Assembly: GCA_020696385.1 (NCBI GenBank)
Contig: JAEHCQ010000005.1
Span: 72,311-136,310 of the forward strand
Direction: 5' to 3'
From: Methanobacteriota archaeon
GTDB taxonomy: Archaea; Thermoplasmatota; Thermoplasmata; SG8-5; JAGLSY01
DNA: 64,000 bases
Part shown: positions 23,587-43,487 of the stretch, piece by piece
Numbering within the stretch: position 1 is the first letter of the stretch
How the letters are laid out: every line of letters begins with the position of its first letter
Notes under the pieces: model-generated
Databases searched by the model: none
Told to the model about the DNA's origin: nothing
Seen by the model: the letters and a program-made list of their open reading frames with translations, nothing else
Made by a program: the position numbers and the translations under genes

Positions 23587-24861
23587 ATGACCATAATGGC
23601 AGAGGCGAAATCCGGCATCACCGACCTCATCAGGCAGGTGGCCGCGGACGAGAAGATGGACCCAGAAAAATTGCGCAGGGCAGTAGCGGCTGGCTACGTT
23701 GTTATTCCCAATAACCCCATACACAACCCCATTCCAAAAGGTATCGGAGAAGGGTGCAGCATCAAGGTGAATGTGAACCTTGGCACATCCGAGGATTGTA
23801 TGGATGTGGAAGAGGAGCTGGAGAAAGCTCGAGTCGCAATGAAATTCGGAGCAGATGCCATCATGGATCTGAGCACCGGAGGAGATGTGGATGCGATCCG
23901 CGCCCGCATCATGAAAGAAGTTAATATTCCGATCGGAACGGTTCCGATTTACCAGGCGGGATTGGAGATGGCCAGGAAATGCTCTGTCGTGGATATGACA
24001 GAGGATATGATCTTCAATGGCATCGAGAAGCATGCGAAGGACGGCGTGGACTTCATGACGGTTCACACGGGCATAACCAAGGAAAGCATAGGCCGATTGA
24101 AGAAATGCGGCCGACTTACAGACATAGTCAGCCGTGGCGGCTCCTTCCTGACAGCGTGGATACTTGCCAATGACATGGAGAACCCCCTTTACGAGAATTT
24201 CGATTATCTACTGGAACTGGCTCAGAAATACGAGTTCACCCTCAGCCTGGGAGATGGGCTGAGGCCAGGCAGTATTGCTGATGCGACCGATGGTCCTCAG
24301 CTCCAAGAGCTCATCATCCTGGGCGAGTGCGTCCAGAGAGCCCGCGAGGCAAATGTACAGACAATGGTTGAAGGCCCTGGTCATGTCCCGCTCAATCAAA
24401 TAGAGGCAAATATGATCATCGAGAAGACCATATGCAAGAACGCACCCTTCTATGTTCTGGGCCCGTTGGTAACAGATATCGCACCCGGATACGACCACAT
24501 CGTGGGAGCGATCGGGGGCGCACTGGCTGCCTACCATGGCGCGGATTTCCTGTGCTATGTGACTCCTGCTGAACATCTATGTCTTCCAAATGTTGAGGAT
24601 GTCAAGATCGGAACTATCACCAGTAAGATAGCGGCTCACGCGGCCGATGTCGCGAAAGGTCGCGGTATGGAGCGCGATAATGCAATATCTCAGGGCAGGA
24701 AGGATCTTGATTGGGAAGCGATCTACAAGAATTCCATCGATCCAGAGCATGCTCGCAAGAGGCGCGGAGACAGAGAGCCAGGAGAAGAGGATGTCTGCTC
24801 GATGTGTGGGGAATATTGTGCGATTAAATTGATCAAAGAACATATGGATGATGAAATTTAA
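23587..24861 (+). CDS. thiC: Phosphomethylpyrimidine synthase
   Basis: KVNVNLGTS, MDLSTGG, GTVPIYQ, VSRGGS, SLGDGLRPG, EGPGH, C-terminal CSMCGEYC. Confidence 0.95.
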   Translation: MTIMAEAKSGITDLIRQVAADEKMDPEKLRRAVAAGYVVIPNNPIHNPIPKGIGEGCSIKVNVNLGTSEDCMDVEEELEKARVAMKFGADAIMDLSTGGDVDAIRARIMKEVNIPIGTVPIYQAGLEMARKCSVVDMTEDMIFNGIEKHAKDGVDFMTVHTGITKESIGRLKKCGRLTDIVSRGGSFLTAWILANDMENPLYENFDYLLELAQKYEFTLSLGDGLRPGSIADATDGPQLQELIILGECVQRAREANVQTMVEGPGHVPLNQIEANMIIEKTICKNAPFYVLGPLVTDIAPGYDHIVGAIGGALAAYHGADFLCYVTPAEHLCLPNVEDVKIGTITSKIAAHAADVAKGRGMERDNAISQGRKDLDWEAIYKNSIDPEHARKRRGDREPGEEDVCSMCGEYCAIKLIKEHMDDEI

Positions 24862-24873
24862 TCGAACAATATT

Positions 24874-24898
24874 GAGCTTGTTGCAAAGCAACATGCTC
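24874..24898. other. Hairpin between thiC and its duplicated 3' end
   Basis: GAGCtTGTTGC-aaa-GCAACAtGCTC. Confidence 0.75.
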
Positions 24899-24900
24899 CC

Positions 24901-24948
24901 TATTGTGCAATTAAGCTGATAAAGGAACATATGGATGAAGATAAATAG
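24901..24948 (+). pseudogene. Duplicated 3'-terminal fragment of thiC (YCAIKLIKEHMDEDK*)
   Basis: Matches 24814-24861: 12 identical residues with 5 synonymous codon changes. Confidence 0.85.
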
Positions 24949-24960
24949 ATAGCCTGGCTG

Positions 24961-25098
24961 TAATATTATAATATAATAATATAAATGCAATTATATTAGA
25001 GTTTTATATTAAAACAAATATATTGACATAAAAATATTATATTGTATATAAATATAATGTGTATGCATATAATTATCAAATAAGTATTAACAATAAAA
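24961..25098. other. Extremely AT-rich intergenic tract between convergent genes
   Basis: About 140 bp with very few G/C bases. Confidence 0.7.
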
Positions 25099-26130
25099 TC
25101 ATCCAGTGATGATCTTCAGATATTCGCCTTCCGTCATCATATCTATGCCATCAACTATTATCGAACACTTCAACATCAACAGATCGATATGATGGTGGCA
25201 TGACCATGTGGCGCCTGTCTTCTCGTGGTATGGATCTCCAAAGGCCACATGTATCGTTGGCAACTTCTCATCCTGAAGGATATTACCAACTATCTTCTCA
25301 AGGAATATATTGGTGCCTATGCCAAGCTCTCCAACCCTGGATGCACATGGCTCGCTATTGATGTACTTTGTGAAATCCTCAAGAAGTTCCTTGTTCTCAC
25401 ACTCGCAATAGGTGACATATGATCCACCATCCCGGGTCTCGACATCTATGATCAAAGGAGTCTCGGAGAAATCAACGATCTCATTGTATTTCTCGCCAAG
25501 CCAGTCACCAACCGTACCATCGACCACAAGTCTACCCTCAAGGGTAAGTGGAGCCGTGAATACCTCACCGGATGGGAGATTATCCCATTCTCCGGTCTTG
25601 GTGACCACGCCGGAGCATGGTATCCATTTCATTGAAGGATCCAGCCTTGCAATGAAGTCCGTACCTGCAGGTGATGTGACGCGTATCTCATCCGCATCCT
25701 TCACCATCCTGTAGACATTTTCAGTGATCTTCTGGACCACTTCATAATCAACACACATGCCGGATTCCATTATTTCATTGGAAACACCGACCATGTGCGC
25801 ATGTCGTGCTTTGGCCTTTATAAGTTTTAAGAAGGGTTCCCTGAGTGTTGCCAATTCCCCTTCACGGGCACCAGCAACGAAAAAAGTGACGGTTGCCTTC
25901 AATATTGCCTCTCTAAGTCCGTCTGGCATCTGTTTAAGAGGGCGGCCTCCATAAGATGGTAGGTCCACATTGAAAAATCTGACATGGTTGGTTATCTCGA
26001 GAGATGCCTTTCTGAGCGCGATACCAATATCCTTACTATCCTCGTCAGCAACTATAAGGACATAATCCTCTGGCTTCACGACCATACACTTTTCGACAGC
26101 GATCTTTGCACCTTGCTCAATAGGAACCAT
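25099..26130 (-). CDS. Aminopeptidase, M29 (aminopeptidase T-like) family
   Basis: SPAGTDF, NLPSGEVFTAP, GELGIGTN, LQDEK..TIHVAFG, HIDL. Confidence 0.88.
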   Translation of the reverse strand: MVPIEQGAKIAVEKCMVVKPEDYVLIVADEDSKDIGIALRKASLEITNHVRFFNVDLPSYGGRPLKQMPDGLREAILKATVTFFVAGAREGELATLREPFLKLIKAKARHAHMVGVSNEIMESGMCVDYEVVQKITENVYRMVKDADEIRVTSPAGTDFIARLDPSMKWIPCSGVVTKTGEWDNLPSGEVFTAPLTLEGRLVVDGTVGDWLGEKYNEIVDFSETPLIIDVETRDGGSYVTYCECENKELLEDFTKYINSEPCASRVGELGIGTNIFLEKIVGNILQDEKLPTIHVAFGDPYHEKTGATWSCHHHIDLLMLKCSIIVDGIDMMTEGEYLKIITG

Positions 26131-26269
26131 CAGTCTTCCGTAAAATGGAACTAATATATAACACTTCCACCAAACAATTTTATAGTCGCCAGGCATAAAT
26201 AATAATATTAACAATATTAAGGAATATGGGATAATTTTAAATCGTTTTCCGGGATGTACAATTGATATT

Positions 26270-26641
26270 ATGCCACCACTTGGATTGATGACCTATGGAT
26301 ATGACGAAGGATCTGCAAAGAACGTCCAGAGCATGCTGGAAGCCATGCTGGGCTCAGAAATTGTGATCATCGGGGCATCGAATAAGGATGATACACTCGT
26401 CAGCCAGATACTGGAAGAAGGTCCGAATTCATCCACTTTTGAAGATCATCAGAATAAGATGTTGATGCTCCTTGGATTCGATGATGAGCAGGTCAAGATA
26501 CTATTGAAGAATTTCCCAAAAAAGGAGCGGCCTATATTTTGTGGGTTGACCGATGAGAACATCAAATGGGATATGAAATATTTGATGAAGCATCTTCTGG
26601 AAGAAAAGAAATACTGGGAATCGCAGGGAAAGCGCAACTGA
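26270..26641 (+). CDS. DUF3783-like protein
   Basis: C-terminal PIFCGLTDENIKW....L..HLLEE pattern. Confidence 0.7.
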   Translation: MPPLGLMTYGYDEGSAKNVQSMLEAMLGSEIVIIGASNKDDTLVSQILEEGPNSSTFEDHQNKMLMLLGFDDEQVKILLKNFPKKERPIFCGLTDENIKWDMKYLMKHLLEEKKYWESQGKRN

Positions 26642-26702
26642 TCGAACTGATCGGTAATGAATTTCAACTCATCCGTTCCAGGCCTATTTTTCAGACAATG
26701 GC

Positions 26703-27557
26703 TTATTCAATAGGCAGAGTTTCTTCAGGATCCTCAGGCGGTTGGCCAACCGCTTGTGGCTGTTGCGGTTGTTGTGGCTGCTGCGGTTGGGCTGGTTGAA
26801 TGGGTTGAGTAGGTTGATCAGGTCTTTGATACATCGGCTGCTGGTATGCTTGCGGGTTAACAGGTTGTTGTGCCATGGGCGGATGCATGGGTTGAAGCGG
26901 GTGCGCCTGCTGCTTTTCCTTTTTCTTTCGGTCATTGTATATCGCGATGACAACAATAACGACCAGTATCAGAAGACCGATACCTCCCATGATCACCAAT
27001 CCATCCACAAGACCATCAAAGGGATCGTCCAACCAAAAATCTGCATTTGCATATTCAAAGGTCATATCCACTACAACCACACCCACAGAGTTTGCATCAT
27101 CAGGGGTGATAGCACAATTTCGATTGTCAATGATTATGAATATCGCATCATCAGGCATATCGTAATAATTCTCCGAGGTCTCAAACTCATAATTTATACG
27201 AACACGGGACACATCTTCCACGGATCCTGGCTTGTATGATATCGCTCTTGGCTCGGTATCATTATCAGAAGGTGAATAATCCCCATAATAGTATGTGGAA
27301 TATGGGTAAGCATTATCTACCTGATTATAGGACATGACATAAACATCGATATTTCCCCCATCGGTCACTGTTATATTGATCCATACTTCGCCATATTCCC
27401 AGGCATCATACGGGCCAGCCACATAGAAGCTATCATCACCGATGTAAATGGTATCTCCTTCAACTGGCTGGGCGGATGAATTACCAGATATTACAATACC
27501 TATTGAAGCACTTATTATCAAAGCAAGCACGATATAACTATAAATTCTTCCCTTCAT
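26703..27557 (-). CDS. Membrane-anchored protein with a Q/P-rich C-terminal tail
   Basis: Signal peptide, acidic ectodomain, TM, KKKEK stop-transfer, PQQ repeats. Confidence 0.75.
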   Translation of the reverse strand: MKGRIYSYIVLALIISASIGIVISGNSSAQPVEGDTIYIGDDSFYVAGPYDAWEYGEVWINITVTDGGNIDVYVMSYNQVDNAYPYSTYYYGDYSPSDNDTEPRAISYKPGSVEDVSRVRINYEFETSENYYDMPDDAIFIIIDNRNCAITPDDANSVGVVVVDMTFEYANADFWLDDPFDGLVDGLVIMGGIGLLILVVIVVIAIYNDRKKKEKQQAHPLQPMHPPMAQQPVNPQAYQQPMYQRPDQPTQPIQPAQPQQPQQPQQPQAVGQPPEDPEETLPIE

Positions 27558-27691
27558 GAAGGAATATCACATAATAGAGATATAAGCCTTTGGAATAAAT
27601 GGGAATAACCTGAATATAGGCAAATGATGGATCTGAAAACTCAGCTCGGTTAAACCATCGGCCAGCTCCATGAAATTATGTTCGGGATTGC

Positions 27692-27915
27692 TTAGAATTT
27701 CTTAGATATCTCGTCCAGCACACTCTCGAATATAGCCATTCCATCCCCGAGTCCAGTTGGGAATGCTCTTGTCCAGTCCGGGTGCATTTCCCTGTCCATA
27801 ACTCTCTCCGGGTGCGGCATCATTCCAAACACATTACCCTGCGGATTACAGATACCAGCCACATTCTTTTCGGAGCCATTTGGATTCCAGAGATACCCGG
27901 CATAACTTCCATCGG
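27692..27915 (-). pseudogene. Duplicated 3'-terminal ~224 bp of purQ
   Basis: Aligns without gaps to 28017-28240. By manual alignment 17 codons differ: 13 synonymous, 3 missense, and a TGA/TAA stop swap. Confidence 0.92.
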
Positions 27916-28016
27916 AAGCCTTTTCTTTTATCCTCGCTGTGCTGGCCGGGCTCCAAAAGAACAAGTATTCCATTGCAAAAGAAAACTCGCCCGGCGCTGC
28001 TCGCTCGGAGATCTAC
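27916..28016 (-). repeat. Structured ~100-bp spacer between purQ and its duplicated 3' end
   Basis: Interlaced inverted repeats GCCGGGC/GCCCGGC and TTTTCTTTT/AAAAGAAAA, plus a second TTGTTCTTTT tract. Confidence 0.6.
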
Positions 28017-28850
28017 TCAGAATCTTTTCGATATCTCGTCCAGCACACTCTCGAATATAGCCATTCCATCCCCGAGTCCAGTTGGGAATGCTCTTGTCCA
28101 ATCTGGATGCATTTCACGATCCATAACTCTCTCAGGGTGCGGCATCATACCAAACACATTACCCCGTGGATTACAGATGCCAGCCACATTCTTTTCTGAG
28201 CCATTTGGATTCCAGGGATACCCGGCATAACTGCCATCGGGATCGACATATGAGAATACAAGCATGTCTTTCTCAGCCAGCTTTTTGTAAGCGATATCAA
28301 CTTCCGCTGAAGGGAAGATAAGCTTCCCTTCAGCGTGAGCAGATGGACACATCAGAACATCGCCCTCTGGTATCTTGGAAGTGAACATGCAATTACCCTT
28401 GTTCTCATGCTTCAGAAGTGTTGGTCGGCATTCGAATCTGGAAGAATCATTGGTAGTCAAAACTGCCTGAGGAACATCGGCCATTATCTCATCGAAGCCA
28501 GGTAGCAGACCCAGTTCGACCAATACCTGGAAGCCATTGCAGATCCCAAGGACAGCCTTTCCTTCATTCACAAAGGCTTTCAGATCATCCTTCAATCCAG
28601 CCTTCATACGAGCTGCCCATATAGCACCAGCACGAACATAATCACCGGATGAAAAGCCACCAGGGATCATCAGAATATGATAATCAGCCAAGCTTCTCTT
28701 CTCATCATCAGTGACATCCTGGCCGAGAAACTGTTTAAGGTGCACGATCTCTGGTTGTGCGCCCAGTCTCTTGAATGCCTGGAATGACTCCTGCTCGCAA
28801 TTGGTTCCCTCTATCCTCAGAACGCAGACTTTGATATCCTCGATGTTCAT
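28017..28850 (-). CDS. purQ: Phosphoribosylformylglycinamidine synthase glutaminase subunit
   Basis: EGTNCE, PGGFSSGDY, LGICNGFQ, AHAEG, NPNGS, GMMPHPER. Confidence 0.96.
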   Translation of the reverse strand: MNIEDIKVCVLRIEGTNCEQESFQAFKRLGAQPEIVHLKQFLGQDVTDDEKRSLADYHILMIPGGFSSGDYVRAGAIWAARMKAGLKDDLKAFVNEGKAVLGICNGFQVLVELGLLPGFDEIMADVPQAVLTTNDSSRFECRPTLLKHENKGNCMFTSKIPEGDVLMCPSAHAEGKLIFPSAEVDIAYKKLAEKDMLVFSYVDPDGSYAGYPWNPNGSEKNVAGICNPRGNVFGMMPHPERVMDREMHPDWTRAFPTGLGDGMAIFESVLDEISKRF

Positions 28851-28937
28851 GGTAGATACTCCTATGTGGGGGTGAAATACGGCATAGGAATTAAGGGTTT
28901 TGATACCCCACCTGAAGCCAAGTGCGGGTTAGGGAGA

Positions 28938-30587
28938 TTATACGATCTTCTGCTTTTTTAATACAAGTATTAAGACGACTATTGCAAGTATTATACAAAT
29001 AACAATTAGAGCAGTATTGCTGCCATTACTGCTAGCCGGAGCATTGTATGGATCGGGATCTTCAAAATCAAGTATTCCATCATTATCATCGTCTGTGTCT
29101 TTATTGTTGCCTATCCCATCCCCGTCTGAATCTGTATCTTCATCAGGATTAAGTGGTAAAGCATCTAAGGAATCTATAACACCATCATTGTCATCATCGG
29201 TGTCCATCCAGTCTTGAGAATTAATTTCATCTCCATCTGGTGTTCTATCGCCATCACTGTCACGTGGATGTCTATCTCCATCTCTTGGATCAGTTCCCAA
29301 ATATTCCTCCCAGATATCCTTGAAGCCATCATTATCATCGTCTGGATCAGATGTATCTCCAATACCATCCCCATCAAAATCATCATCTGTTGGTCCTTCC
29401 AAATTGCCAGAGAACACATTATTCATGGTATTGGTAGCATTGGAGAAACTTAATACCATTCCACACAGATTATCTGATATTACATTATTCATAATTGCAG
29501 CTCCATCTGATAATATTAATGAGATCCCATACCAGGTATTATTGGATATCTCATTATCGAGGATACTGCATCTATCTGAACTCTGTAATGATACCCCATA
29601 ATATCTGTTTGAATTAATTATGTTTCTCTCGATAATAGTCAGATCTGAGTTAGAAATGGAAAGCCCATTTCCAAAGTCATTATCCGATATGTCATTATTT
29701 TTAATTTCATTACTATTGGAATTTTTGATTGATATCTGTATGGGGGCTGGATGGCTTGAGACTATATTTGAATGAGAGGCTACTATATCTATGTGTTCAA
29801 CAGTATTACCTGCTATGAGGTTATCATCAGACCCCTCTAATTTGATGCCTTGGCTCCTATAGTCTGAAGCAATATTGTTTTTAATGGTATTGTTGTTTGC
29901 TGAAATTAAATAAATACTAAATTCATTGTTAACAAAAGTATTGTTTTCAATAATATTATCATAACCTATGACTTTAATACCATTCCCAGAGCTCTCTGCT
30001 ATATTATTTAGTTTTATTATATTATGATTTCCTTGAGCCATAATACCATGATCACCTCTTTCACCGTCATCAACTCCATTGGAAGAGATTGTATTTTGAA
30101 TGATCTGAATATAATTTGAATTAGTCATACTTATCCCGTCCTTATTATTAGATGTGATCGAATTGTTAGTAATAGTGATATTATTCGAAAAATAAACTTC
30201 AATGCCAGCTCCATTATAATTAGAAGAAATGTTATTATTTTCAATTACTCCATTTTCAGTATTATAAAGATATAATCCAACATTTCCATAATACAGGCTA
30301 TCAATCCCACTTGCCTGATGCAAATAACAATCTCGAATTATAAAATGATCTGTAGTATTACCAATAAAAATACAGTCCCCTTTGCTGATTCCATTGATAT
30401 CAAATCCTTCAATTATCCATGGATTCAGTTGGGTGCCATTTCCTGGAAAACCTTTAATAGAGAATTCATAATTATTTTTTATTCTGATCGGTACATGGTC
30501 AGTATATCCTTCAGTTGGTTGCGGGATTACAATAAATACTGTAAAACACATCATTAAAATTATCACTGTTGATATAATCCTTTTCAT
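28938..30587 (-). CDS. Surface protein with NosD/parallel beta-helix repeats and Ca-binding TSP3-like repeats
   Basis: Signal peptide, GNGT..NPWIIE, many I.NN.I..N repeats, DxDxDG repeats, C-terminal TM. Markedly AT-rich relative to neighbours. Confidence 0.85.
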   Translation of the reverse strand: MKRIISTVIILMMCFTVFIVIPQPTEGYTDHVPIRIKNNYEFSIKGFPGNGTQLNPWIIEGFDINGISKGDCIFIGNTTDHFIIRDCYLHQASGIDSLYYGNVGLYLYNTENGVIENNNISSNYNGAGIEVYFSNNITITNNSITSNNKDGISMTNSNYIQIIQNTISSNGVDDGERGDHGIMAQGNHNIIKLNNIAESSGNGIKVIGYDNIIENNTFVNNEFSIYLISANNNTIKNNIASDYRSQGIKLEGSDDNLIAGNTVEHIDIVASHSNIVSSHPAPIQISIKNSNSNEIKNNDISDNDFGNGLSISNSDLTIIERNIINSNRYYGVSLQSSDRCSILDNEISNNTWYGISLILSDGAAIMNNVISDNLCGMVLSFSNATNTMNNVFSGNLEGPTDDDFDGDGIGDTSDPDDDNDGFKDIWEEYLGTDPRDGDRHPRDSDGDRTPDGDEINSQDWMDTDDDNDGVIDSLDALPLNPDEDTDSDGDGIGNNKDTDDDNDGILDFEDPDPYNAPASSNGSNTALIVICIILAIVVLILVLKKQKIV

Positions 30588-30649
30588 TTTTCCACCTCTC
30601 TTCCATGACGGCCATCCCTTAACTAGCTTATTAGTTGTGGGCATTCCTC

Positions 30650-30699
30650 CACTCGCATAAGTGAATCGAAAGTCTCACTTATATGACTTTCGTTGAGTG
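30650..30699. other. Interlaced inverted-repeat element (A-B-A'-B')
   Basis: ATAAGTGA/TCACTTAT and CGAAAGTC/GACTTTCG, enclosed by CACTC/GAGTG. Confidence 0.7.
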
Positions 30700-30708
30700 T
30701 ATTGGATT

Positions 30709-31461
30709 TCAGCTATTCTTATTCCCACCAGAACTGTCAGCCGCTATATGCAGGAAATTCTCAAGGTGGCTTGCCAGATATTCATTGTCGGTGAATCCGC
30801 AGGTCTCCAGATCCGGCGAAGCAATGAGCGCACTGTGACTGTCCACAATGACATCCGTCGCAATGAGGCCATTCTTCCGGGTCACATTCACATCGGGGAA
30901 CACCTTCTGGCCATGAGGCGTGAGAATGGTGATCACCACACCTCGCTTCTGCGCAGATACCACCTTCTTGTCCAGCTTCTGCCTGAACTCCGACATATTG
31001 GGTGTGGACATCATGAAAGTCTCTGTCGCTTTGTCCAGCATCTCACTTATCCTATCGATGACCTTTGTTTTTCCAGTTATCGTGTAAATGAGCTGGGGCA
31101 TGCCCTGCTCCTTCAGAATCTCTCGAATGGACTCCAACTTGCTGAAAGTATCCTCGAGGCGGGTGATTATCTGCCCACCTATCTTCCGGGGTTCCTCGGG
31201 TCGGTATAATCGAGGCCTACCCTCACCAGCATGGGCGAAGCCCTTTTCTTCAAGGGTATCGAGAACTTTGTAAGCCGAAGTTCTCGGTATCTGGGCCGTT
31301 GTCGCAATGGTATCCGCATCCGATACGCCATGCGCGACAAGTGCGATGTACGCCCGGGCCTCATAATCCGACAGACCCAGTAATGCCAAATCGGCAGATA
31401 TTAGTCGATATTCCTCCATGAGGGTTTCATTGCTCTGGCTTATTACATCCACGATATCCAT
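30709..31461 (-). CDS. TrmB-family transcriptional regulator
   Basis: LGLSDYEARAYIAL, IPRTSAYKVLDTLEEKG, GRPRLY. Confidence 0.92.
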   Translation of the reverse strand: MDIVDVISQSNETLMEEYRLISADLALLGLSDYEARAYIALVAHGVSDADTIATTAQIPRTSAYKVLDTLEEKGFAHAGEGRPRLYRPEEPRKIGGQIITRLEDTFSKLESIREILKEQGMPQLIYTITGKTKVIDRISEMLDKATETFMMSTPNMSEFRQKLDKKVVSAQKRGVVITILTPHGQKVFPDVNVTRKNGLIATDVIVDSHSALIASPDLETCGFTDNEYLASHLENFLHIAADSSGGNKNS

Positions 31462-31533
31462 AATATTACCTTTGTCGCGGTTATCGCTACAAAACACTTA
31501 AGTCTTTTCCTTAGATATACATTAGTGATTCTT

Positions 31534-33084: not shown

Positions 33085-33251
33085 TCGTGGTAGATCCACG
33101 AATTTGTCTCCATTGCGCACAATGCGTGGGAACATGCCCTCATATGGCACTCGAATTGAATGACATGCATATCGAAGTGAATGAGAATTGCAAATCCTGT
33201 AAATGGTGTGTTATATCATGCCCAGTAGGTGCGCTCACACTGGAGGCCTGA
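33081..33251 (+). CDS. 2x[4Fe-4S] ferredoxin (56 aa, not in ORF track)
   Basis: MIVVDPRICLHCAQCVGTCPHMALELNDMHIEVNENCKSCKWCVISCPVGALTLEA*. ATGA overlap with the tes stop. Confidence 0.93.
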   Translation: MIVVDPRICLHCAQCVGTCPHMALELNDMHIEVNENCKSCKWCVISCPVGALTLEA

Positions 33252-33253
33252 AG

Positions 33254-34447: not shown

Positions 34448-34472
34448 TGTAAGGAAATAAGAAAGCAAAATA

Positions 34473-34515
34473 CCAGCCGAGTAGATAATCTCGGCTGGCT
34501 TCTTTTCATTTTTCT
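34473..34515 (+). terminator. Hairpin plus T-rich tract between convergent genes
   Basis: CCAGCCGAG-8nt-CTCGGCTGG followed by cttcttttcattttt. Confidence 0.6.
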
Positions 34516-34522
34516 CGAATCA

Positions 34523-35830: not shown

Positions 35831-35953
35831 GTATAATGTACCCACATTTGAATCGACCACTATATTATAAACATTTCTGGACATAATGGCTATTGTATGT
35901 CATGTTCTACAACATACAATATATTTATCTATCACATTTCATTTAGCCCAGCT

Positions 35954-38900
35954 ATGTGGCTGCGAAAGGTAACCTGCATTTTCATCATATTGGCGGTTAT
36001 GCTATCTGGCTTTCAAATAAGTGTCGGCCAGGAAAATGATCTGAACCAAGATGATGACACCCCTATTACCTTCCGTTGCGCCATTGATAGAATATATAAC
36101 ACCAATCCTCTCGAGGAAGACAAGGTCAGCTGGAAAGCGCTCGGTCTCGTTTACGAGGGAGCCACAAAGTATAACCTGGAAACCGGCCGCCTTGACCCGT
36201 ATATAGCGGTTGGCTCTGCCAATGAGTCACGCAAATCTTCAAACATAACCTGGGAAGATTGCACTGTGGACAACTTCGGCTACAGCAAAAAGATCCTCTG
36301 GGAGAATCAGAGCAAGCCGGAGATGATCATCTTCTATGATTTTGAGAACGTATACTGGCATGATGATGTGCAGATGAGCATACGTGACATCATGTTCTCC
36401 TTCCATGCCCATGCAACTTCCCAGTACTCATCTCTTGGACATCCACTGATAGATGAAAATAACTATTCAGTAGATCAATGGATGTCAATCAACATCATCT
36501 GGGAATCGGATGATTCATCCAAGGCCGCGTTGAAATTCGTTTTGCAGAAACCGTACTACAGTGTCTTCTTGCATTATCTCTCATTACCCATCCTACCCTA
36601 TCACATTTGGGGGAGCAAGGTAGGCAACCAGCAAGAAGATGGAACCAGGATCTGGTATGATGAAGATTACGACAGTTCCTTGAATGGCACTGCCTGGAAA
36701 CCAACACTAGCTAAATCTTGGAGTAATGGCCAGCCCATCGGGAGCGGCCCTTTCAAGTGGGGAGAATTAGAGGAAGATAGGTTAACTTTAGTCACGTGGA
36801 GGAAGCATTTTTACAAATCCGGATACAAGTATGACGACCTGGCATCCCAACCTAATATCGATGAGATTTCTTTCAGATTTTATAATAGACGGGATCAAGC
36901 GATATCAGACTTGGAAAACAACGATATTGATTACATAGGATGGACCATGGATGAATCTGATCTCAATCAGTTTTCGAGGGATCCTGATCTGGAGTTCAAT
37001 TATCTGAAAGGTGCAGTGATGGTTGATATAATATACAATATGAGAAAGAAGTCATTTGGATACGATTTGAAGTGGCCAGCATCAGGCATCGATCTCGGGA
37101 AACCCCTCAGAAGGGCCATCGCCCATTGCGTGGATAATGAGGCAATAAATTCTATGACTGATTTCGCCACCGAAGGAGAAAATTTAGGCTTGTTCTATAA
37201 TTGGAATAATATCTCTGCTCCGCGATATGCGTTCGACCCCAATGAAGCAGTGAGTATTCTGAAAAAAGCGGGGTATCTGCTGGAGAACTCGTCATCGCCT
37301 CCTGGAAATGGTAATTGGTGGCTCAATCCTGATGGCACCACTATAGGCAGTAGCCTTGACGGCACAATAGAGCTACTTATTTCCAGGCAAGAACAGGATC
37401 AATTGATGTTCCAGATCGGCACTATGGTAACCCAAGAGTTGAGAAAAATCGGGATTAACATAGAGCTTGTTCCACTGGAAACTGGTGAATTATGGGGGAG
37501 GATCTTCGCCGGAGAATTTGATATGTGCGTTGTGGCACAGGATTATGAGACCCCCATCGATATACTGACTGTGCCCGTTTATTACCCTCATTTATATAAT
37601 AAGCCGCCCAGAATTATCCAATACACCACCACCTATGACAGTAGTCCTTCTCCGAAAAATGGGGCAAATAATGTCGACCCAGATCGAGCACGTTTACGCG
37701 TTTTCGTATCTGACCCTGACGGAGACCCTATAACTGTCAGATTCTATAATTCTATAACCCAGAAACTAATAGGAACAGACATAATCTATTGGGATACCGA
37801 GGAGGGTGTTCAAGCTAGTGTCTGGTGGCCCGATCTCAAAGGCCACACTGATTACTCCTGGTATGTCATTGCGAATGATACGTTTTCCAAGGTACAATCA
37901 CAAACCTGGAGTTTCACCACCAAGACCGGAACCCGAGGAGGTTCTTCTGTCGAAGTAGAGGGTTTTCCGGACATATACCTGAAAAGACCTGAAAATTATT
38001 TCTTCAGCTCTTTCCATTCTGATAATATATACGATGGTTCAAACCTCTACGGGTATCAGAATGCATCGTTTGACCGGTTAATAGAGGATGCCATGTTTTC
38101 AATTGATAGAGATGTGGAAATTCAGCTTGCCCGAGATGCAGTCACTGCCCTGGCATATGATCTACCGAAGGAGCATCTGTATTATCAGTACAAATACGAA
38201 GTTCACAGGTGCGATACCTTTGTGAACTACATCGACGACGGCTCCGGCTCTCTTCTGAACCCCAGATCCATAGCCAGGATAAGGCCCCCTGAGAAGAACC
38301 AAATGAATGTCCGCTTCACCACGATACCTCTCCTAACCATATCGGATTACATGTCCCTGGTGAGAGTGAGAGTAACCGACCAGCACGGGAGATCCATCAG
38401 CGATGCACAGGTCACCATGGGGTCCTCATCAGGAAACTTATCCGCATACAGCGGGCTGACTGATGAGCAGGGCTACTTCACCACCGTCTTCACCGCGCCC
38501 AATGTTCTCCCCGGGACGAACTCATCCAACGGAACGCCTGTGATGGTATCTATATTGCCCGTATCAAAGGAAGGCTACCTGGATGCAGCAGGTAGGGAAT
38601 CGGCAATACTGGTATACCCGGAAAACTACGTAACTCTCTATGTCGAAGCCAATGCTGAAACGGATGTGATAGAGGACCGCATCTCCACCAGCCAGGCAGG
38701 GCACACCGACATTCGTGTCAGAGTCACCGACCAGCATGGAAACCCCGTTGCCAGTGCGTCGGTCATAGTCGAGCTTGATGGTGCACGGATGTTCCTGGAC
38801 CCTCCAAACGGGACCACGGATTACCAGGGATATCTCAAGCTGAAGATAACCGCCACCGAAGTGAATGAGACCGAGGAATGCAGGATCACCATAAGAGCCT

Positions 38901-39088
38901 CCAGGGACGGGTTCCTGGATGGTCAGCAACAGATCACACTGACGATATTGCCCGTCGATTTGACTGTTTACACCATCACGACACAGAACAATAGCTGGCT
39001 CATCATCATGCTCGTGGGATCCGCCGCTGCTTTGGCAGTGGCGGCATTTGTCTTATCGAAGAGAAAGAAGAGAAAGAAAAAAAGTTGA
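35954..39088 (+). CDS. Family-5 (peptide/nickel) ABC substrate-binding protein with Ig-like domains and C-terminal TM anchor
   Basis: WHD....SIRDIMFS, ILPYHIW, PIGSGPFK, LRRAIAH, YQNASFD. Big_1-like VRVTDQHG repeats. Confidence 0.85.
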   Translation: MWLRKVTCIFIILAVMLSGFQISVGQENDLNQDDDTPITFRCAIDRIYNTNPLEEDKVSWKALGLVYEGATKYNLETGRLDPYIAVGSANESRKSSNITWEDCTVDNFGYSKKILWENQSKPEMIIFYDFENVYWHDDVQMSIRDIMFSFHAHATSQYSSLGHPLIDENNYSVDQWMSINIIWESDDSSKAALKFVLQKPYYSVFLHYLSLPILPYHIWGSKVGNQQEDGTRIWYDEDYDSSLNGTAWKPTLAKSWSNGQPIGSGPFKWGELEEDRLTLVTWRKHFYKSGYKYDDLASQPNIDEISFRFYNRRDQAISDLENNDIDYIGWTMDESDLNQFSRDPDLEFNYLKGAVMVDIIYNMRKKSFGYDLKWPASGIDLGKPLRRAIAHCVDNEAINSMTDFATEGENLGLFYNWNNISAPRYAFDPNEAVSILKKAGYLLENSSSPPGNGNWWLNPDGTTIGSSLDGTIELLISRQEQDQLMFQIGTMVTQELRKIGINIELVPLETGELWGRIFAGEFDMCVVAQDYETPIDILTVPVYYPHLYNKPPRIIQYTTTYDSSPSPKNGANNVDPDRARLRVFVSDPDGDPITVRFYNSITQKLIGTDIIYWDTEEGVQASVWWPDLKGHTDYSWYVIANDTFSKVQSQTWSFTTKTGTRGGSSVEVEGFPDIYLKRPENYFFSSFHSDNIYDGSNLYGYQNASFDRLIEDAMFSIDRDVEIQLARDAVTALAYDLPKEHLYYQYKYEVHRCDTFVNYIDDGSGSLLNPRSIARIRPPEKNQMNVRFTTIPLLTISDYMSLVRVRVTDQHGRSISDAQVTMGSSSGNLSAYSGLTDEQGYFTTVFTAPNVLPGTNSSNGTPVMVSILPVSKEGYLDAAGRESAILVYPENYVTLYVEANAETDVIEDRISTSQAGHTDIRVRVTDQHGNPVASASVIVELDGARMFLDPPNGTTDYQGYLKLKITATEVNETEECRITIRASRDGFLDGQQQITLTILPVDLTVYTITTQNNSWLIIMLVGSAAALAVAAFVLSKRKKRKKKS

Positions 39089-39124
39089 ACTCTTCGATGA
39101 TCATTCTTCTAATGAATTGGATGC

Positions 39125-39805
39125 TTAGATGTCCTCTTCTTCATCCTCATTCTTGACCCGATCTTCAATATCTTCCTTATCAAGTCCCTTGTACCCCAGC
39201 GCGATAATGTATATCTCCGAGCTGGCACTTCTTGAAGCAATGGGAGAATGGCGTTTCGCCATTCTAAATCTTGTTCGGATCTCTTTATGGAAGAAATCAT
39301 GGGTCATGTCCCCATCAAAAACCTTGACAACATAGCCACCACCAGGCCTCAGATACTTCTCTGCAAAGGACAATGAAAGCTCTGCTAATTCTATCGATAC
39401 CGCGTGATCCATACTGTAATTTCCACTTATATTAGGGGACATATCTGAAATGACAACATTGATCTTGATATCTTTCTCTCGCTCCTTTGCCAGGATATCG
39501 TCGATCATCTTTTTCACGCGCTCGGACTTGGCATTCCCCCTGATGAGATGGACATTCTTAATCGGTTCGATGGGTTTCAGATCAATGCCTATCACCAGAC
39601 CCTCTTCACCAACAAGCTCCTTGGCCATTTGACACCAACCACCCGGATTGGCTCCGAGATCGATCACGATATCGCCCTCTTTAATTATGCGATATCTCTC
39701 GCACATCTGCCTGAGCTTGAAGGCCGCACGGCTCCTGTAATTCTCGGACTTTGCCTTTTTATAGAAATAATCACGTCTTCTATTAGCCTGCCAATTCTTT
39801 CCCAT
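39125..39805 (-). CDS. rlmE: 23S rRNA Um2552 methyltransferase RlmE/RrmJ
   Basis: YRSRAAFKL, DLGANPGGW, SDMSPNISG, VKVF, SR..SSEIY. Confidence 0.94.
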   Translation of the reverse strand: MGKNWQANRRRDYFYKKAKSENYRSRAAFKLRQMCERYRIIKEGDIVIDLGANPGGWCQMAKELVGEEGLVIGIDLKPIEPIKNVHLIRGNAKSERVKKMIDDILAKEREKDIKINVVISDMSPNISGNYSMDHAVSIELAELSLSFAEKYLRPGGGYVVKVFDGDMTHDFFHKEIRTRFRMAKRHSPIASRSASSEIYIIALGYKGLDKEDIEDRVKNEDEEEDI

Positions 39806-39838
39806 ATCTCTAACTCCATTCCGCATCTTTCACTTTAT

Positions 39839-40426
39839 TCAAATACCCAATTTAGTCTGCTTCGTATCTATCACGAGATTACTCGCAGAGAACTTATTGA
39901 TTATAAAATGTAGTATCATATCATTTAATTCATCATCATACGTTCTTATTGATACATAGGCCGGGTCATTGTACCTGGTCTTGATACCCCGTTTGCTCAG
40001 GATCTTCTTGACCTCGGACCTTTCCTCACTGGATATTTTTTTAACACCATTGCCTGGATTTGTACCAATGCCAGCCCTTTCAAGTTCTTCAAGGAAGACT
40101 GGTCTTCGGAATAGCTTCTGGAAGCTGTAAACTGCGAATGCCATCCTGTCATCCTTATTCATGTCAAGATCTATACAATAGGAACCAATGGTCTCGTAAA
40201 TATCCATATCCACCTTGAGAGGGACTGAATATACCTTTGATGGAGGTATGTCCTTGGCCTTGACAACATTCAGATCCTCCATCGCTCTTAGGTATCCTGT
40301 CAAAATAAGGCGGTGTATGTCATAGCCCTCATCTTTGAGAAGTCGATGTAAGCTCGAAATAGATCTATCTTCACTTTTCAAAGAATCAAGGATTATTTCT
40401 TTGAATGTTTTGTCTGGGATGAACAT
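39839..40426 (-). CDS. Winged-helix-like hypothetical protein, putative regulator
   Basis: SISSLHRLL..HRLILTGYLRAMEDLNVV..PPSKVY pattern resembles wHTH. Divergent from nrdD. Confidence 0.6.
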   Translation of the reverse strand: MFIPDKTFKEIILDSLKSEDRSISSLHRLLKDEGYDIHRLILTGYLRAMEDLNVVKAKDIPPSKVYSVPLKVDMDIYETIGSYCIDLDMNKDDRMAFAVYSFQKLFRRPVFLEELERAGIGTNPGNGVKKISSEERSEVKKILSKRGIKTRYNDPAYVSIRTYDDELNDMILHFIINKFSASNLVIDTKQTKLGI

Positions 40427-40635
40427 CTGGTAACCAACATGGTAACAGACCTGATAATAAATAAAACCATCGGCCTTAAATCCTGTTACCAGACCTAGTT
40501 CAAAAATCTCTTTAAACCATAGATGTTATGACATGTTTCCACATCCCTGACATTATATTCTGTCACACGCACACTAAGAATATTAACTGTAGCCAGTGAC
40601 AAAATACAATGCCAGATTAAGGCAGGGAGGAGGCC

Positions 40636-40679
40636 GATACAACGTTCGTTGTATAATGATACAACAGCCGCTGTATAAT
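40636..40679. promoter_or_regulatory. Two tandem 22-bp semi-palindromic sites upstream of nrdD
   Basis: GATACAACgttcGTTGTATAAT and GATACAACagccGCTGTATAAT. Confidence 0.65.
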
Positions 40680-40696
40680 AGTGGAGGGTGTTCGTT

Positions 40697-42808
40697 ATGA
40701 AGCCAGCACAGACCAAGGAAGGAAGGAAATCTCAAGGAGGGATGGGAATTGGGAACCCGGAATCGACAGAGTTATCTCTGTTCGTGAGAACCTCTGATGA
40801 GGACATCAAAGGATGGGATAAAGCAAAGATCCATGATGCCCTCATAAAGGAAACTAGTATCAGTGAGGATGCGGCGTCCATTGTGGCAAGAGAGGTCGAG
40901 AAGCTTATTATCAATCTAGAACTGGATTATATCACAGCTCCCTTAATAAGAGAGTTGACCAATGCAAAATTGGTAGAGTATGGTCTAGCACAGATAAGAA
41001 AGCAACATACGAGACTCGGCGTCCCATTGTATGATGCAAGGCAGATCATCATAAGCCCGAACAAGGAAAATGCCAATGTCCCACATGGTCCAGAGGCAAC
41101 GAACCTCACCCTCGCAGAGAACATAAAGAAGGAATTCGCTCTGATAGAAATATTCGAACCATCTATCGCAGATGCTCACATGAAGGGTGAGATACACCTT
41201 CATGATCTGGGCATGATAGACAGGCCATATTGTAGTGGCCAGTCCATCGAATATGTGAAGAAGTTCGGATTGAATCTACCGGGAGCAATGTCCATAGCGA
41301 AGCCAGCCAAACATCCGGATGTTCTAATAGAACACGTTGTGAAGTTCTCGGCCGCTCTGCAGGGGCATTTCGCCGGAGCTATCGGATGGGATGCCTTCAA
41401 CCTCTTCCTGGCACCTTACCTGGAAAATGTAGATGATGTGAAAATGAAACAGCTTGCACAGATACTGGTGTACGAGTTCGCACAGCAAGCTGTCGCAAGG
41501 GGCGGTCAATCGATATTCAGTGATCTGAACCTCTATTGGGAAGTTCCCAAGCACTTTGAGAATGTGGAGGCAATAGGCCCAGGCGGAGTTAACCTGGGTC
41601 ATTCCTATGCCGAATACCTTCCCGAAGCGCAGAGGTTCGTAGATGCGCTGTTCGATGTCTATCTGGAAGGAGATGCCATGGGTCGCCCCTTCTTTTTCCC
41701 CAAGCCCAATGTGCACATGACGGAGAAATTCTTCAATAGTGATGGCCATGAAGAATTCCTGAACAAGATATGCACCGTGGCTTCCGAGAAGGGAAATACC
41801 TATTTCGTTTTCGACAGAGGGGACACAGCGAAGATCAGCGAGTGCTGCCGCCTGACATTCAAACTGGAGCAGGGAGATCTGGAAGATGCAAAGACACCCT
41901 GGAAGATGAGATACTCCGCTATTCAGAATGTGACGATCAACCTTCCGAGGATAGCCTATGAGGCGAATATGGACGATGCAAGGCTCTTCGAGCTCATTAC
42001 GGAGAGGATCGAGCTCGTTGCCAATGCTCATGTGAGGAAAAAAGATTTCATCGTAAAACTCCTGGGAATGGGCAAATACGGTCCGCTATCATTATTGGCG
42101 ATGGAATTGGACGGGGAACCATATTACAGAATGCACAGAGCCACCTTCCTGGTTGGAATGCTGGGTCTGAACGAGATGGTGCAGTTCCATACTGGTGATC
42201 AGATGCATGAGAACAAGGATGCGCTGATGTTCGGCCTGAAGATAATCGCTTACATGAACAAGGAGGCCGAAAGAATTGGGGAAAAATACGGCATAAAGAT
42301 GCCACTGGAGCAAACCCCGGCAGAATCAACCGCCTACAGGATGGCAAAATTGGACATGAAATACTACCCACTCCAGGCACCCACCACGATAAGAGGTGAC
42401 AAGAGCACTGGGGAGATATACTACACAAATTCCACTTACATGAATGTGGGAATTGAGCAGAATCCAATTGATAAGGTGAAGAAAGAGGGATTATTCCACC
42501 CCCTGATAGAAGCAGGAGCACTTACCCATGTCTGGCTGGGAGAAAGTAAACCCAATCCGGACAGTCTTGCCAATTTTGTGAAGAAGACGATGTGGAATAC
42601 CCAGAACACGCAGATAGCCTTCAGTCCAGAGTTCACATCATGTCTGGATTGCGGGAGGACCATGAGAGGGCTGAGTGAGGCGTGTCCCAAATGCTCTTCA
42701 TTGAATGTGGAAGGCATAACGAGGGTGACAGGCTTTTTCTCCAAAGTGGGATCATGGAACAAGGGCAAGACCGGGGAGCTGAACGATAGGTTCAAAGCAG
42801 ATATTTAG
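40697..42808 (+). CDS. nrdD: Anaerobic (class III) ribonucleoside-triphosphate reductase
   Basis: ATP-cone, HLHDL..PYC, SECCRL, TINLPR, TPAEST, YYTNS, zinc site CLDC..CPKC, RVTGF glycyl-radical motif. Confidence 0.95.
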   Translation: MKPAQTKEGRKSQGGMGIGNPESTELSLFVRTSDEDIKGWDKAKIHDALIKETSISEDAASIVAREVEKLIINLELDYITAPLIRELTNAKLVEYGLAQIRKQHTRLGVPLYDARQIIISPNKENANVPHGPEATNLTLAENIKKEFALIEIFEPSIADAHMKGEIHLHDLGMIDRPYCSGQSIEYVKKFGLNLPGAMSIAKPAKHPDVLIEHVVKFSAALQGHFAGAIGWDAFNLFLAPYLENVDDVKMKQLAQILVYEFAQQAVARGGQSIFSDLNLYWEVPKHFENVEAIGPGGVNLGHSYAEYLPEAQRFVDALFDVYLEGDAMGRPFFFPKPNVHMTEKFFNSDGHEEFLNKICTVASEKGNTYFVFDRGDTAKISECCRLTFKLEQGDLEDAKTPWKMRYSAIQNVTINLPRIAYEANMDDARLFELITERIELVANAHVRKKDFIVKLLGMGKYGPLSLLAMELDGEPYYRMHRATFLVGMLGLNEMVQFHTGDQMHENKDALMFGLKIIAYMNKEAERIGEKYGIKMPLEQTPAESTAYRMAKLDMKYYPLQAPTTIRGDKSTGEIYYTNSTYMNVGIEQNPIDKVKKEGLFHPLIEAGALTHVWLGESKPNPDSLANFVKKTMWNTQNTQIAFSPEFTSCLDCGRTMRGLSEACPKCSSLNVEGITRVTGFFSKVGSWNKGKTGELNDRFKADI

Positions 42809-42842
42809 TGATCACTAATCATATATCACGATTAACTCCCCC

Positions 42843-42893
42843 TTTTTTTTTGTAAACTGAGAGCGCGGGCTCGCGCTCTCGTTTACAAAAAAA
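42843..42893. terminator. Long hairpin with T/A flanks (bidirectional terminator-like or repeat element)
   Basis: T-run-GTAAAC(T)GAGAGCGCG-ggct-CGCGCTCTC-GTTTAC-A-run. Second hairpin CCTTGGC/GCCAAGG at 42908-42929. Confidence 0.65.
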
Positions 42894-42947
42894 GTAAGAT
42901 TGAATATCCTTGGCAGCTTACGGCCAAGGGCAGGGCATCAACCCCAA

Positions 42948-42986
42948 TTAAATTGATTTGCATTGAAGCAGAGCATCGCCGATCCC
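42948..42986. repeat. 39-bp direct repeat, copy 1
   Basis: TTAAATTGATTTGCATTGAAGCAGAGCATCGCCGATCCC, identical to 43413-43451. Confidence 0.95.
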
Positions 42987-42995
42987 AAAGACAGT

Positions 42996-43370
42996 CTAAT
43001 CAAACCCCTTTGCAAAGAATATCACAAATGATATCATGCCCATTATCATGCTTGGCCATATCAAGGTAACCATCAAGAATAATGAGCCTATCAAAGCGAC
43101 ATCATACCTGTCCTTCTTATATGCAATAAATGCAAATGACAATGCCAGTAAACTAAATATCACTGAAATAAAAGCACATGGTTGATTGGTCTCAAAAAAA
43201 CCACCGCCTATCATTCCCATACCTGCATCATTATCCTCCTGAATTGGATCATGATATAATATTGAATATGTGAGAGAGAATAATGAGCCAATGATAAGAA
43301 GTGCAAGCCCTAATTTGATAATAGGATTGAACTTATCTATTCGTTTAGATAATGATTTTTTATTCTGCAT
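42996..43370 (-). CDS. AT-rich small membrane protein between direct repeats
   Basis: 124-aa ORF with 3-4 TM segments; AT-rich composition. Confidence 0.7.
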   Translation of the reverse strand: MQNKKSLSKRIDKFNPIIKLGLALLIIGSLFSLTYSILYHDPIQEDNDAGMGMIGGGFFETNQPCAFISVIFSLLALSFAFIAYKKDRYDVALIGSLFLMVTLIWPSMIMGMISFVIFFAKGFD

Positions 43371-43412
43371 CGATTACAAATCCCCACGGCTCTAGTAAAT
43401 AGCAATCCCAAG

Positions 43413-43451
43413 TTAAATTGATTTGCATTGAAGCAGAGCATCGCCGATCCC
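43413..43451. repeat. 39-bp direct repeat, copy 2 (overlaps hairpin 43444-43468)
   Basis: Identical to 42948-42986; continues into CCGATCCCG-7nt-CGGGATCGG. Confidence 0.95.
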
Positions 43452-43487
43452 GAATTAAACGGGATCGGTTGGCTAGACGTCTGGACA

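Follow-up and report, generated by a model that had tools for sequence, protein, structure and literature searches.

Homing-endonuclease cassettes, such as those of the fungal mitochondrial atp6 gene, bring a foreign gene tail with them and leave the old one downstream, and repetitive extragenic palindromes (REPs) are simple palindromes that make no long target duplication. The protection of mRNA 3' ends in archaea is, to our knowledge, poorly understood. Triple-helix elements in which an ENE is combined with an A-rich tract are described, in a review of 2026 (PMC13541005), from viral, nuclear and transposon RNAs, including those of plant and fungal transposons. In this work, a stretch of 64,000 nt from a Methanobacteriota archaeon (GenBank assembly GCA_020696385.1, contig JAEHCQ010000005.1), referred to as the window, was analyzed, with a main focus on a 100-nt insert that separates two copies of the 3' end of purQ. 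The window corresponds to C46:72311-136310 of genome G000, a metagenome assembly of 2.28 Mb in 50 contigs with runs of N. The purQ insert is one member of a family of mobile elements that are small (93-220 nt), structured and non-coding, and on the whole it seems probable, if not strongly so, that a long duplication of the gene tail was followed by the import of diverged alleles. An initial annotation had described gene-end duplications at three loci of the window, and a repeat search found all three where they had been placed. The idea that they share one type of insert was not borne out, as only purQ carries the multi-copy element.

The purQ gene, recognized by its match to the Pfam family GATase_5 (E 2.3e-68), lies on the reverse strand. 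Its working tail (X1, positions 28016-28240, with the stop codon at 28019-28017) is followed by the element (27916-28015), which includes a 7-nt leader after the stop, and then by a displaced tail copy (X2, 27691-27915) that has its own stop codon and runs into the native downstream DNA. The two copies are 225 nt long and 92% identical in the repeat search, which agrees with the copy and the 100-nt spacer annotated initially. They are spaced by 325 nt and are thus out of frame. The 93-aa open reading frame (ORF) of the displaced copy has a Pfam match limited to the last 59 positions of the GATase_5 domain. Short gene-fragment ORFs of this kind, for example 27692-27973, are created by the element and could be miscalled by annotation pipelines.

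A scan of the genome for repeated gene ends, as had been suggested with the initial annotation, showed that the pattern recurs far beyond the three loci. Whole-genome self-comparison (at least 35 nt, at least 80% identity, a gap of at least 5 nt, within 4 kb) resulted in 103 local direct-repeat pairs, and in many of these a long ORF has its stop codon right at the edge of one copy. When the spacers of local repeat pairs were oriented by the gene, copies of one sequence family, including the purQ spacer, were obtained. Profile searches with the 5' and 3' modules of this family gave 41 and 48 matches, respectively, which were combined into 40 elements of 93-220 nt in G000; one module pairing, of 43 nt, is a fragment. 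The inserts hold no ORFs and are non-coding, and the longer ones have additional hairpin modules in the apical loop. The apical loop of long-form elements, for example at G000:C33:252804-252993, contains a second, nested repeat family in which hairpin modules are paired (TTTAAATGCG...CGCATTTATTTT, followed by ATCAAGC...GCTTGAT). This hairpin-module family is also found solo at G000:C11:13678-14095, next to a tRNA whose 3' end is in turn duplicated (108 nt, 98%).

Wherever an ORF or a tRNA gene precedes it, the element stands in the sense of that gene, mostly 0-24 nt past the stop codon or the tRNA 3' end. Its orientation is mixed along contig C11, and therefore its direction tracks the local gene and not the replication strand. 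A direct repeat between the upstream and downstream flanks (score above the best of 30 shuffles plus 8) is present at 29 of the 40 elements, with lengths of 17-313 nt and identities of 72-100%. The earlier observation that the structured element ends at the junction with the second copy could be extended to the family: X2 starts at most 10 nt from the element 3' end in 26 of these 29 cases, and at C11:577183, one of the three exceptions, the module was mis-paired and X2 abuts by eye. The upstream copy X1 ends 0-53 nt before the conserved 5' end of the element. Twenty of the 29 elements follow a same-orientation ORF of at least 45 aa, with a distance from stop to element of -4 to 48 nt (at most 10 nt in 11 of the 20), and four follow tRNA genes; the remainder are tandem arrays or unassigned, and tandem arrays at a single tRNA were also seen among the element loci. 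The adjacent genes are ordinary ones by Pfam, namely those for a class-I glutamine amidotransferase, an ARMT1-like phosphatase, an M50 peptidase, UPF0179, an Fe-S protein, phosphoenolpyruvate carboxykinase (PEPCK), proteasome alpha and a disulphide oxidoreductase. In the relatives compared, which are metagenome assemblies throughout, flank repeats were found at 10 of 15 testable copies in the congener G002 and at 10 of 19 in G001, G003, G007 and G018 pooled; the named Thermoplasmata-type records of metagenome-assembled genomes gave 5 of 10.

Repeats of this kind could also arise when an assembler stitches two strain alleles in tandem, which would fit a 50-contig metagenome assembly with N runs. 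Two exact duplicates do flank N runs in G000: at G000:C33:249596-249760 and G000:C46:8135-8389, 78-nt duplicates of 100% identity surround 9 and 98 N, respectively, and these look like scaffolding or gap artefacts. They are exact and element-free, whereas the element cases vary in identity and share a covarying insert. In addition, orthologous element junctions recur in separately assembled related genomes, and the repeats end at stop codons. An artefact is thus scarcely credible as the explanation of the element loci.

The covariation of the spacers, one of the checks named with the initial annotation, was found to support two helices and a pairing between tail and loop for the element family. 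In a structural alignment of 47 element copies from several genomes (A1), helix P1 is formed by the 6 nt before GAGCAG and the 6 nt after CAGCRCA, and helix P2, of 8-9 bp, lies directly inside P1. Together they have 88.9% paired cells, compared to 65.6% in column shuffles (0 of 500 shuffles reach the observed value), and pairing falls to 22-46% when the partner is slid by 1-3 columns. Double-sided changes amount to 137 cells in P1 and P2 versus 44.7 in shuffles, with 12 of the 13 pairs covarying, and the tandem G.A/A.G in the middle of P1 is retained in 36 and 37 of the 47 copies. Inside P2, a U-rich internal loop of two strands closes on a variable apical hairpin, and P1 is followed by an A-rich 3' tail. 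In the purQ element, on the reverse strand, P1 pairs 28008-28003 with 27937-27932 and P2 pairs 27997-27989 with 27951-27944; the U-rich strands lie at 27985-27977 and 27965-27955 and the A-rich tail at 27929-27919.

The A-rich tail is complementary to the 3' U-rich strand, with a longest Watson-Crick run of 9.96 for matched and 8.59 for mismatched copies (0 of 2000 permutations), and the two change in concert between subfamilies. With this covariation-supported pairing, the tail and the 3' strand form a pseudoknot. The 5' U-rich strand shows a small excess of matches to the tail in parallel register (9.36 vs 8.68; 0 of 5000), and this second U strand is compatible with a parallel, Hoogsteen-type reading and a possible triple helix. 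The RNA of the element probably caps or terminates the 3' untranslated region (UTR). Rfam gave nothing at gathering score in the whole window, and around the purQ element only three weak, chance-level matches at E values up to 10.

Empty sites were looked for in close relatives and were found in both directions between G000 and G002. In G002, purQ has a single tail and no element, and two more element sites of G000 are empty. The reverse, a filled site in G002 and an empty one in G000, is clear at loci L024 and L030 and was judged by an alignment gap at L023 and L028. Filled sites thus differ between congeners, and the element is therefore mobile. At the G000 site matching L024, no element is present but three to four decaying tandem copies of the last 15-18 nt of the gene are, and these look like footprints of earlier insertion rounds. 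At a putative argF locus, named from the sequence, the G000 element has a 63-nt internal deletion compared to an otherwise near-identical G002 contig. The site in the window that corresponds to L023 (58589-58642, G000:C46:130899-130952) is apparently empty, and the G002 element there has no detectable flank repeat.

Of 31 related genomes, 18 gave the element in a DNA search, and with one exception these belong to the same order. In a pattern scan with one genome per species, which was too permissive to define the range of the element, 17 of the 118 matches listed have real element modules, and all 17 come from records with Thermoplasmata, Methanomassiliicoccales or Methanobacteriota archaeon in the title; 101 are chance matches, mostly in bacteria. 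Among the genomes searched, only Thermoplasmata-type archaea gave members of the family. Viral contigs gave 0 exact matches to a 23-base element pattern. In fragmented relatives (L221, L233, L235, L248 and others), many element copies lie at contig ends, so copy numbers in these genomes are lower bounds, and the element seems to break short-read assemblies.

Further insight into the way of insertion comes from the joint between the element and X2. The element 3' end is ragged and stops at varying points of ...GGCTTCCGGGGG. The 12 host bases preceding the duplication share 4.23 of 12 identities with the element end, compared to 3.08 at control positions (one-sided Wilcoxon p=1.5e-4, with n=48 inflated by some orthologous pairs); controls were used because the true 3' end of the element cannot be fixed independently. 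At single sites the joint microhomology reaches up to 11, 8 and 7 of 12. In the favored mechanism, the element would be joined via its 3' end, aided by short homology, to a site within the gene tail, and this joining would yield a long target duplication and leave the gene intact.

The same joint could also result from RNA-templated insertion, in which the 3' part of an mRNA or pre-tRNA together with the element RNA is copied to DNA, with a template switch at the element 3' end. What is duplicated would in this case be the stretch at the 3' terminus of a transcript. The sense orientation to ORF or tRNA throughout, with a direction that follows genes and not replication, the position just past stop codons or tRNA ends, the A-rich 3' tail, the variable duplication length and the microhomology at the 3' joint are all in line with such copying. 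In addition, X2 starts in the T-loop at three tRNA loci, and positions 56/57, which are modified in archaeal tRNAs, show changed bases or one additional base there. At the tRNA targets G000:C44:61900-62600 (L192) and G000:C11:632335-632551, the displaced 3' halves begin in the T-loop and, compared to the intact tRNA, have a base changed (A to G) or an extra C/T at these positions. Copying from modified RNA could have left such changes, or the bases may simply have diverged. On the other side, the reverse transcriptase family RVT_1 was not found in G000 or three other genomes of the genus (0 of 4), and it occurs in 5 of the 31 relatives and in 2 of the 18 element-positive genomes, the assemblies being incomplete throughout (74-94%). 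The tRNA copies retain a gene-type 3' end and not CCA, and the T-loop is also a classic integrase crossover site. RNA-templated insertion is therefore considered quite unlikely. A diversity-generating retroelement was rejected as well, as the genome has no RVT_1 and the differences between the copies involve all bases and lie at third codon positions.

The differences between the two tail copies had been described as mostly synonymous, and this applies to purQ, where 18 codons differ, 14 synonymously (the stop counted) and 4 non-synonymously. The 20 ORF-linked loci of G000 add up to 64 codon differences that are synonymous and 20 that are not, distributed over codon positions 1:2:3 as 16:12:67; three other sets gave 4:1:12, 9:4:25 and 3:2:3, in sum 16:7:40. 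If one copy were a relic in decay next to a gene under constraint, much more change would be expected at positions 1 and 2. The differences are also clustered, as identical runs of 98, about 150, 66 and 63 nt adjoin segments that are 15-35% different. The synonymous bias in these mosaic blocks argues that at least part of one copy evolved as a working tail in another lineage. To this extent the earlier proposal that both copies evolved as functional tails, probably in different lineages, is retained; two wholly independent tails do not agree with the long identical blocks. On contig C50, the tRNA-Phe copies on either side of an element differ by compensatory T-stem changes and intron-like inserts, and both look like working alleles.

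Polarisation against G002 shows how the blocks are arranged. In purQ, differing segments enclose an identical one (different-identical-different). X1 has the G002 state in the left zone, at 9 of 11 polarisable sites with 4 more uninformative, and X2 has it at the right end, at 3 of 3 sites. At C33:252804, the right end of X2 and the downstream DNA match G002, while five changes, mostly synonymous, are private to X1 at its right end. Both patterns are what two homologous crossovers inside a pre-existing tail repeat would be expected to leave on the import of a diverged, element-bearing allele. Under the favored reading, element-bearing alleles would spread among diverged lineages by ordinary homologous recombination. 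Crossovers would land in the duplicated, conserved coding tail because intergenic DNA is diverged, and the two copies would turn into mosaics of donor and resident that differ at synonymous sites.

The initial annotation had proposed tail capture, with homology-facilitated illegitimate recombination as one possible way. In this model a foreign piece consisting of gene tail, 3' UTR and element is joined homologously on the left and illegitimately on the right, and the copies differ from the insertion on. Several observations agree with it: the differences are biased to synonymous sites, the sequence from the X1 stop to the element is unrelated to the DNA after X2, the 3' ends of the element are ragged, and microhomology is present at the joint with X2. 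Also, at C48:76499 the same 8 residues and stop are encoded twice with about 10 base changes, which is too little identity for a homologous crossover. The long identical blocks in diverged pairs are a poor fit to two independent tails joined illegitimately, as they would require later gene conversion, and they fit a duplication within a single lineage followed by exchange. In purQ it is X1 that has the native character at the left and X2 that has it at the right, as two homologous crossovers in an existing repeat predict. Moreover, capture demands a separate illegitimate join at the same element end in each of dozens of loci. We regard capture as unlikely, although it is the alternative to be taken most seriously. 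The recurrent architecture, the synonymous bias and the junction placement on which it was built all stand, and the common insert and the wholly independent tails do not.

Several points weigh against duplication followed by import. Eleven of the 40 element copies have no flank repeat. The 0-53 nt between X1 and the element 5' end are unmatched by the DNA downstream of X2, and thus a target duplication that abuts both element ends is not seen directly; a simple target duplication may be read from two young cases, which need small indels. The locus C11:577183 polarises in reverse, with the right end of X1 resembling G002, and is compatible with import only by assuming a G002-like donor. Displaced copies remain coding-like longer than import would easily allow, and the 12-codon core of the thiC X2 of two species shows 4 synonymous and 0 non-synonymous changes. 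With respect to the fold, the permutation tests ignore the kinship of the copies, and the covarying tail types may stem from some five or six subfamilies; for the purQ element itself, the nested fold is no more stable than shuffles (z = +0.55; 141 of 200 fold as well). Two further points concern the Y1 transposase described below, which occurs in 13 of the 18 genomes with the element and in 5 of the 13 that lack it, and which adjoins an element in only 1 of 12 genomes' loci, the other 11 having no element within about 1.5 kb.

The enzyme that moves the element was sought in the genome. The initial annotation had stated that no integrase, reverse transcriptase or HUH gene lies in the window, which is correct; the genome holds a Y1 (HUH) transposase gene and four tyrosine-recombinase matches. 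Three of these four are above the Pfam cut-off, and all are outside the window and the element inserts. TnpB was not found. The single Y1 (HUH, IS200-like) gene of G000, encoding 143 aa, lies at L209 (G000:C50:510-3857). After it come tRNA-Phe, an element that stands about 270 nt past the Y1 gene, and a diverged second copy (313 nt, 81% identical) of the transposase tail plus a whole second tRNA-Phe. Orthologues of Y1 are found in 18 of the 31 relatives across the order, usually in one to three copies. The Y1 transposase is a weak candidate for the enzyme of the element and no more than that, as co-occurrence is weak and adjacency is not conserved.

The tyrosine recombinases bring up the possibility that the loci are remnants of integrase-driven integrative elements, with X1 and X2 as attL and attR and the element as the leftover of a decayed island. 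Direct repeats of gene and tRNA 3' ends flanking inserts, including tandem arrays at one tRNA, would be expected from such integration, and the recombinase matches, three of them over the Pfam cut-off, are in its favor. What speaks against it is that the same conserved, non-coding unit of 93-220 nt stands at about 40 targets, with ragged junctions and repeats that range from 17 to 313 nt. No integrase lies beside the copies inspected, and the viral contigs are without the element pattern. Integrative remnants are thus a very unlikely source of the family.

The other two loci of the window show the same outcome as purQ, an insert between long direct repeats, with other cargo. The thiC gene, on the forward strand, was identified by its match to ThiC_Rad_SAM (E 6.9e-189). 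The 48-nt copies and the 39-nt spacer annotated there were confirmed by direct reading: the working tail (X1, 24814-24861) ends in TAA, the spacer hairpin occupies 24862-24900, and the displaced tail (X2, 24901-24948) ends in TAG. The repeat search returned 24814-24854 and 24901-24941 (41 nt, 85%), and both copies extend to the stop. The spacer hairpin is stable (z = -5.47, 0 of 200 shuffles) and occurs only at this locus in G000. Membership in a repeat family was rejected, as a search with the 25-nt hairpin and up to 5 changes finds only itself in the genome. In G001 a related, longer hairpin follows both tail copies of thiC, and therefore the thiC arrangement is a tandem duplication of tail plus hairpin; G002 and G003 have one tail and lack the hairpin. 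What separates the two thiC tails is a hairpin specific to this locus, set within a tandem duplication that is older. In the window (24859-24948) the thiC X2 is in frame, with a spacing of 87 nt and a spacer without an in-frame stop, so that read-through of TAA would add 29 residues repeating the C-terminus. This is probably chance, because the second copy in G001 is out of frame. Read-through as the cause that keeps X2 coding was rejected, as X2 is out of frame both in the G001 thiC and at purQ.

The third locus had been placed downstream of an aglB operon. The gene upstream is nrdD, with a match to NRDD (E 1.2e-140), and the aglB label is unsupported because none of seven neighboring ORFs tested is an oligosaccharyltransferase. 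The copies, annotated as 39 bp, are 48 nt long and 94% identical in the repeat search. The left repeat (42942-42989) is truncated within a hairpin that is complete in the right one (43407-43454), which is colinear with the single copy in G002; neither repeat has a strand assigned. Between them lies a 417-nt insert on the reverse strand (42990-43406) with a 124-aa ORF (42996-43370). This ORF has no Pfam family, and atlas scores of at most 0.85 are leads only; the insert and its ORF have no match in G001-G004.

Related arrangements are seen elsewhere. Downstream of nrdD, G002 has an insertion of its own of about 140 nt between 21-nt repeats (AACTCCCCC, a T run, GTA) at L175 (G002:C22, about 95930-96110), and G001 has repeated modules in the corresponding intergenic region. 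In G000, a 1.1-kb insert lies within a 437-codon reverse-strand frame between 68-nt repeats (94%) at G000:C33:119419-120657, and a 103-nt insert lies between copies of a tRNA 3' end plus T-rich trailer at G000:C48:33013-33180, both without the element. Long direct repeats therefore often enclose an insert in this lineage, and the cargo is of several kinds. Among the neighbors of the third locus, the 1063-aa ORF at 35897-39088 is a family-5 solute-binding protein with Ig-like domains and not AglB, and large beta-helix, CARDB and NosD surface proteins are also present (28938-30644, 43736-44542).

The fold and the insertion pattern can be combined in a more speculative proposal, which we rate as doubtful. 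The element would be an archaeal counterpart of the ENE/A-tract triple-helix RNA cap that spreads with no transposase dedicated to it. With its U-rich clamp and 3' tail it would take hold of purine-rich stretches close to transcript or nascent-DNA 3' ends, and an RNA- or DNA-templated template switch would copy the element in and re-copy the gene end, so that each insertion rebuilds the tail. Element and tail together would then form a transportable homology anchor by which gene ends pass from one species to another. If the favored reading is true, prokaryotes have mobile elements that spare host genes by duplicating gene ends, the duplicated ends record gene flow between species at dozens of loci, and the family offers, for archaea, a candidate RNA structure of the triple-helix type at 3' ends that is backed by covariation.

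No description of such an element was found in the literature, at the level of abstracts, or in Rfam, and the insertion pattern matches no described mobile element found. Each of the known systems shares some features with it. As in the ENEs with A-rich tracts of PAN, MALAT1 and transposons, a U-rich internal loop is set between stems in the element and pairs with an A tract that lies downstream; the known ENEs are eukaryotic or viral, with none from archaea mentioned in the passages of PMC13541005 consulted, and the element has no Rfam match. REPs and bacterial interspersed mosaic elements (BIMEs), with their RAYT transposases, are likewise short, structured, multi-copy, extragenic and placed just after stop codons, and the genome has a Y1 gene; the difference is that Y1 flanks the element in only 1 of 12 genomes' loci. 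Elements derived from IS200/IS605 (PATE-like) insert on the 3' side of a set tetra- or pentanucleotide and make no target duplication, whereas here there are no conserved bases before the 5' end, TnpB was not found and long duplications are present. MITEs (miniature inverted-repeat transposable elements) are also small, non-autonomous, multi-copy and polymorphic in presence and absence. The element has no terminal inverted repeats, as by inspection its 5' CCGAGC... and 3' ...GGCTTCC are not inverted copies (12 and 47 copies), and it makes no short target duplication of fixed length, the range being 17-313 nt. Integrative elements with attL and attR resemble the element in that 3'-end direct repeats flank the insert, the gene remains intact and tandem arrays form at tRNAs; here the insert is tiny and non-coding, contains no integrase and has about 40 targets and a variable repeat length. 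With SINE-like elements (short interspersed nuclear elements) and target-primed reverse transcription it has in common an A-rich 3' end, variable duplication, 3'-joint microhomology and non-autonomy, and it differs in that its hosts are prokaryotes and that the search of the genus gave no reverse transcriptase. The atp6-type cassettes are alike in their outcome, as a foreign, synonymously diverged C-terminal piece replaces the resident one and the relic stays; the archaeal element does so without an endonuclease gene and is found genome-wide rather than at one locus.

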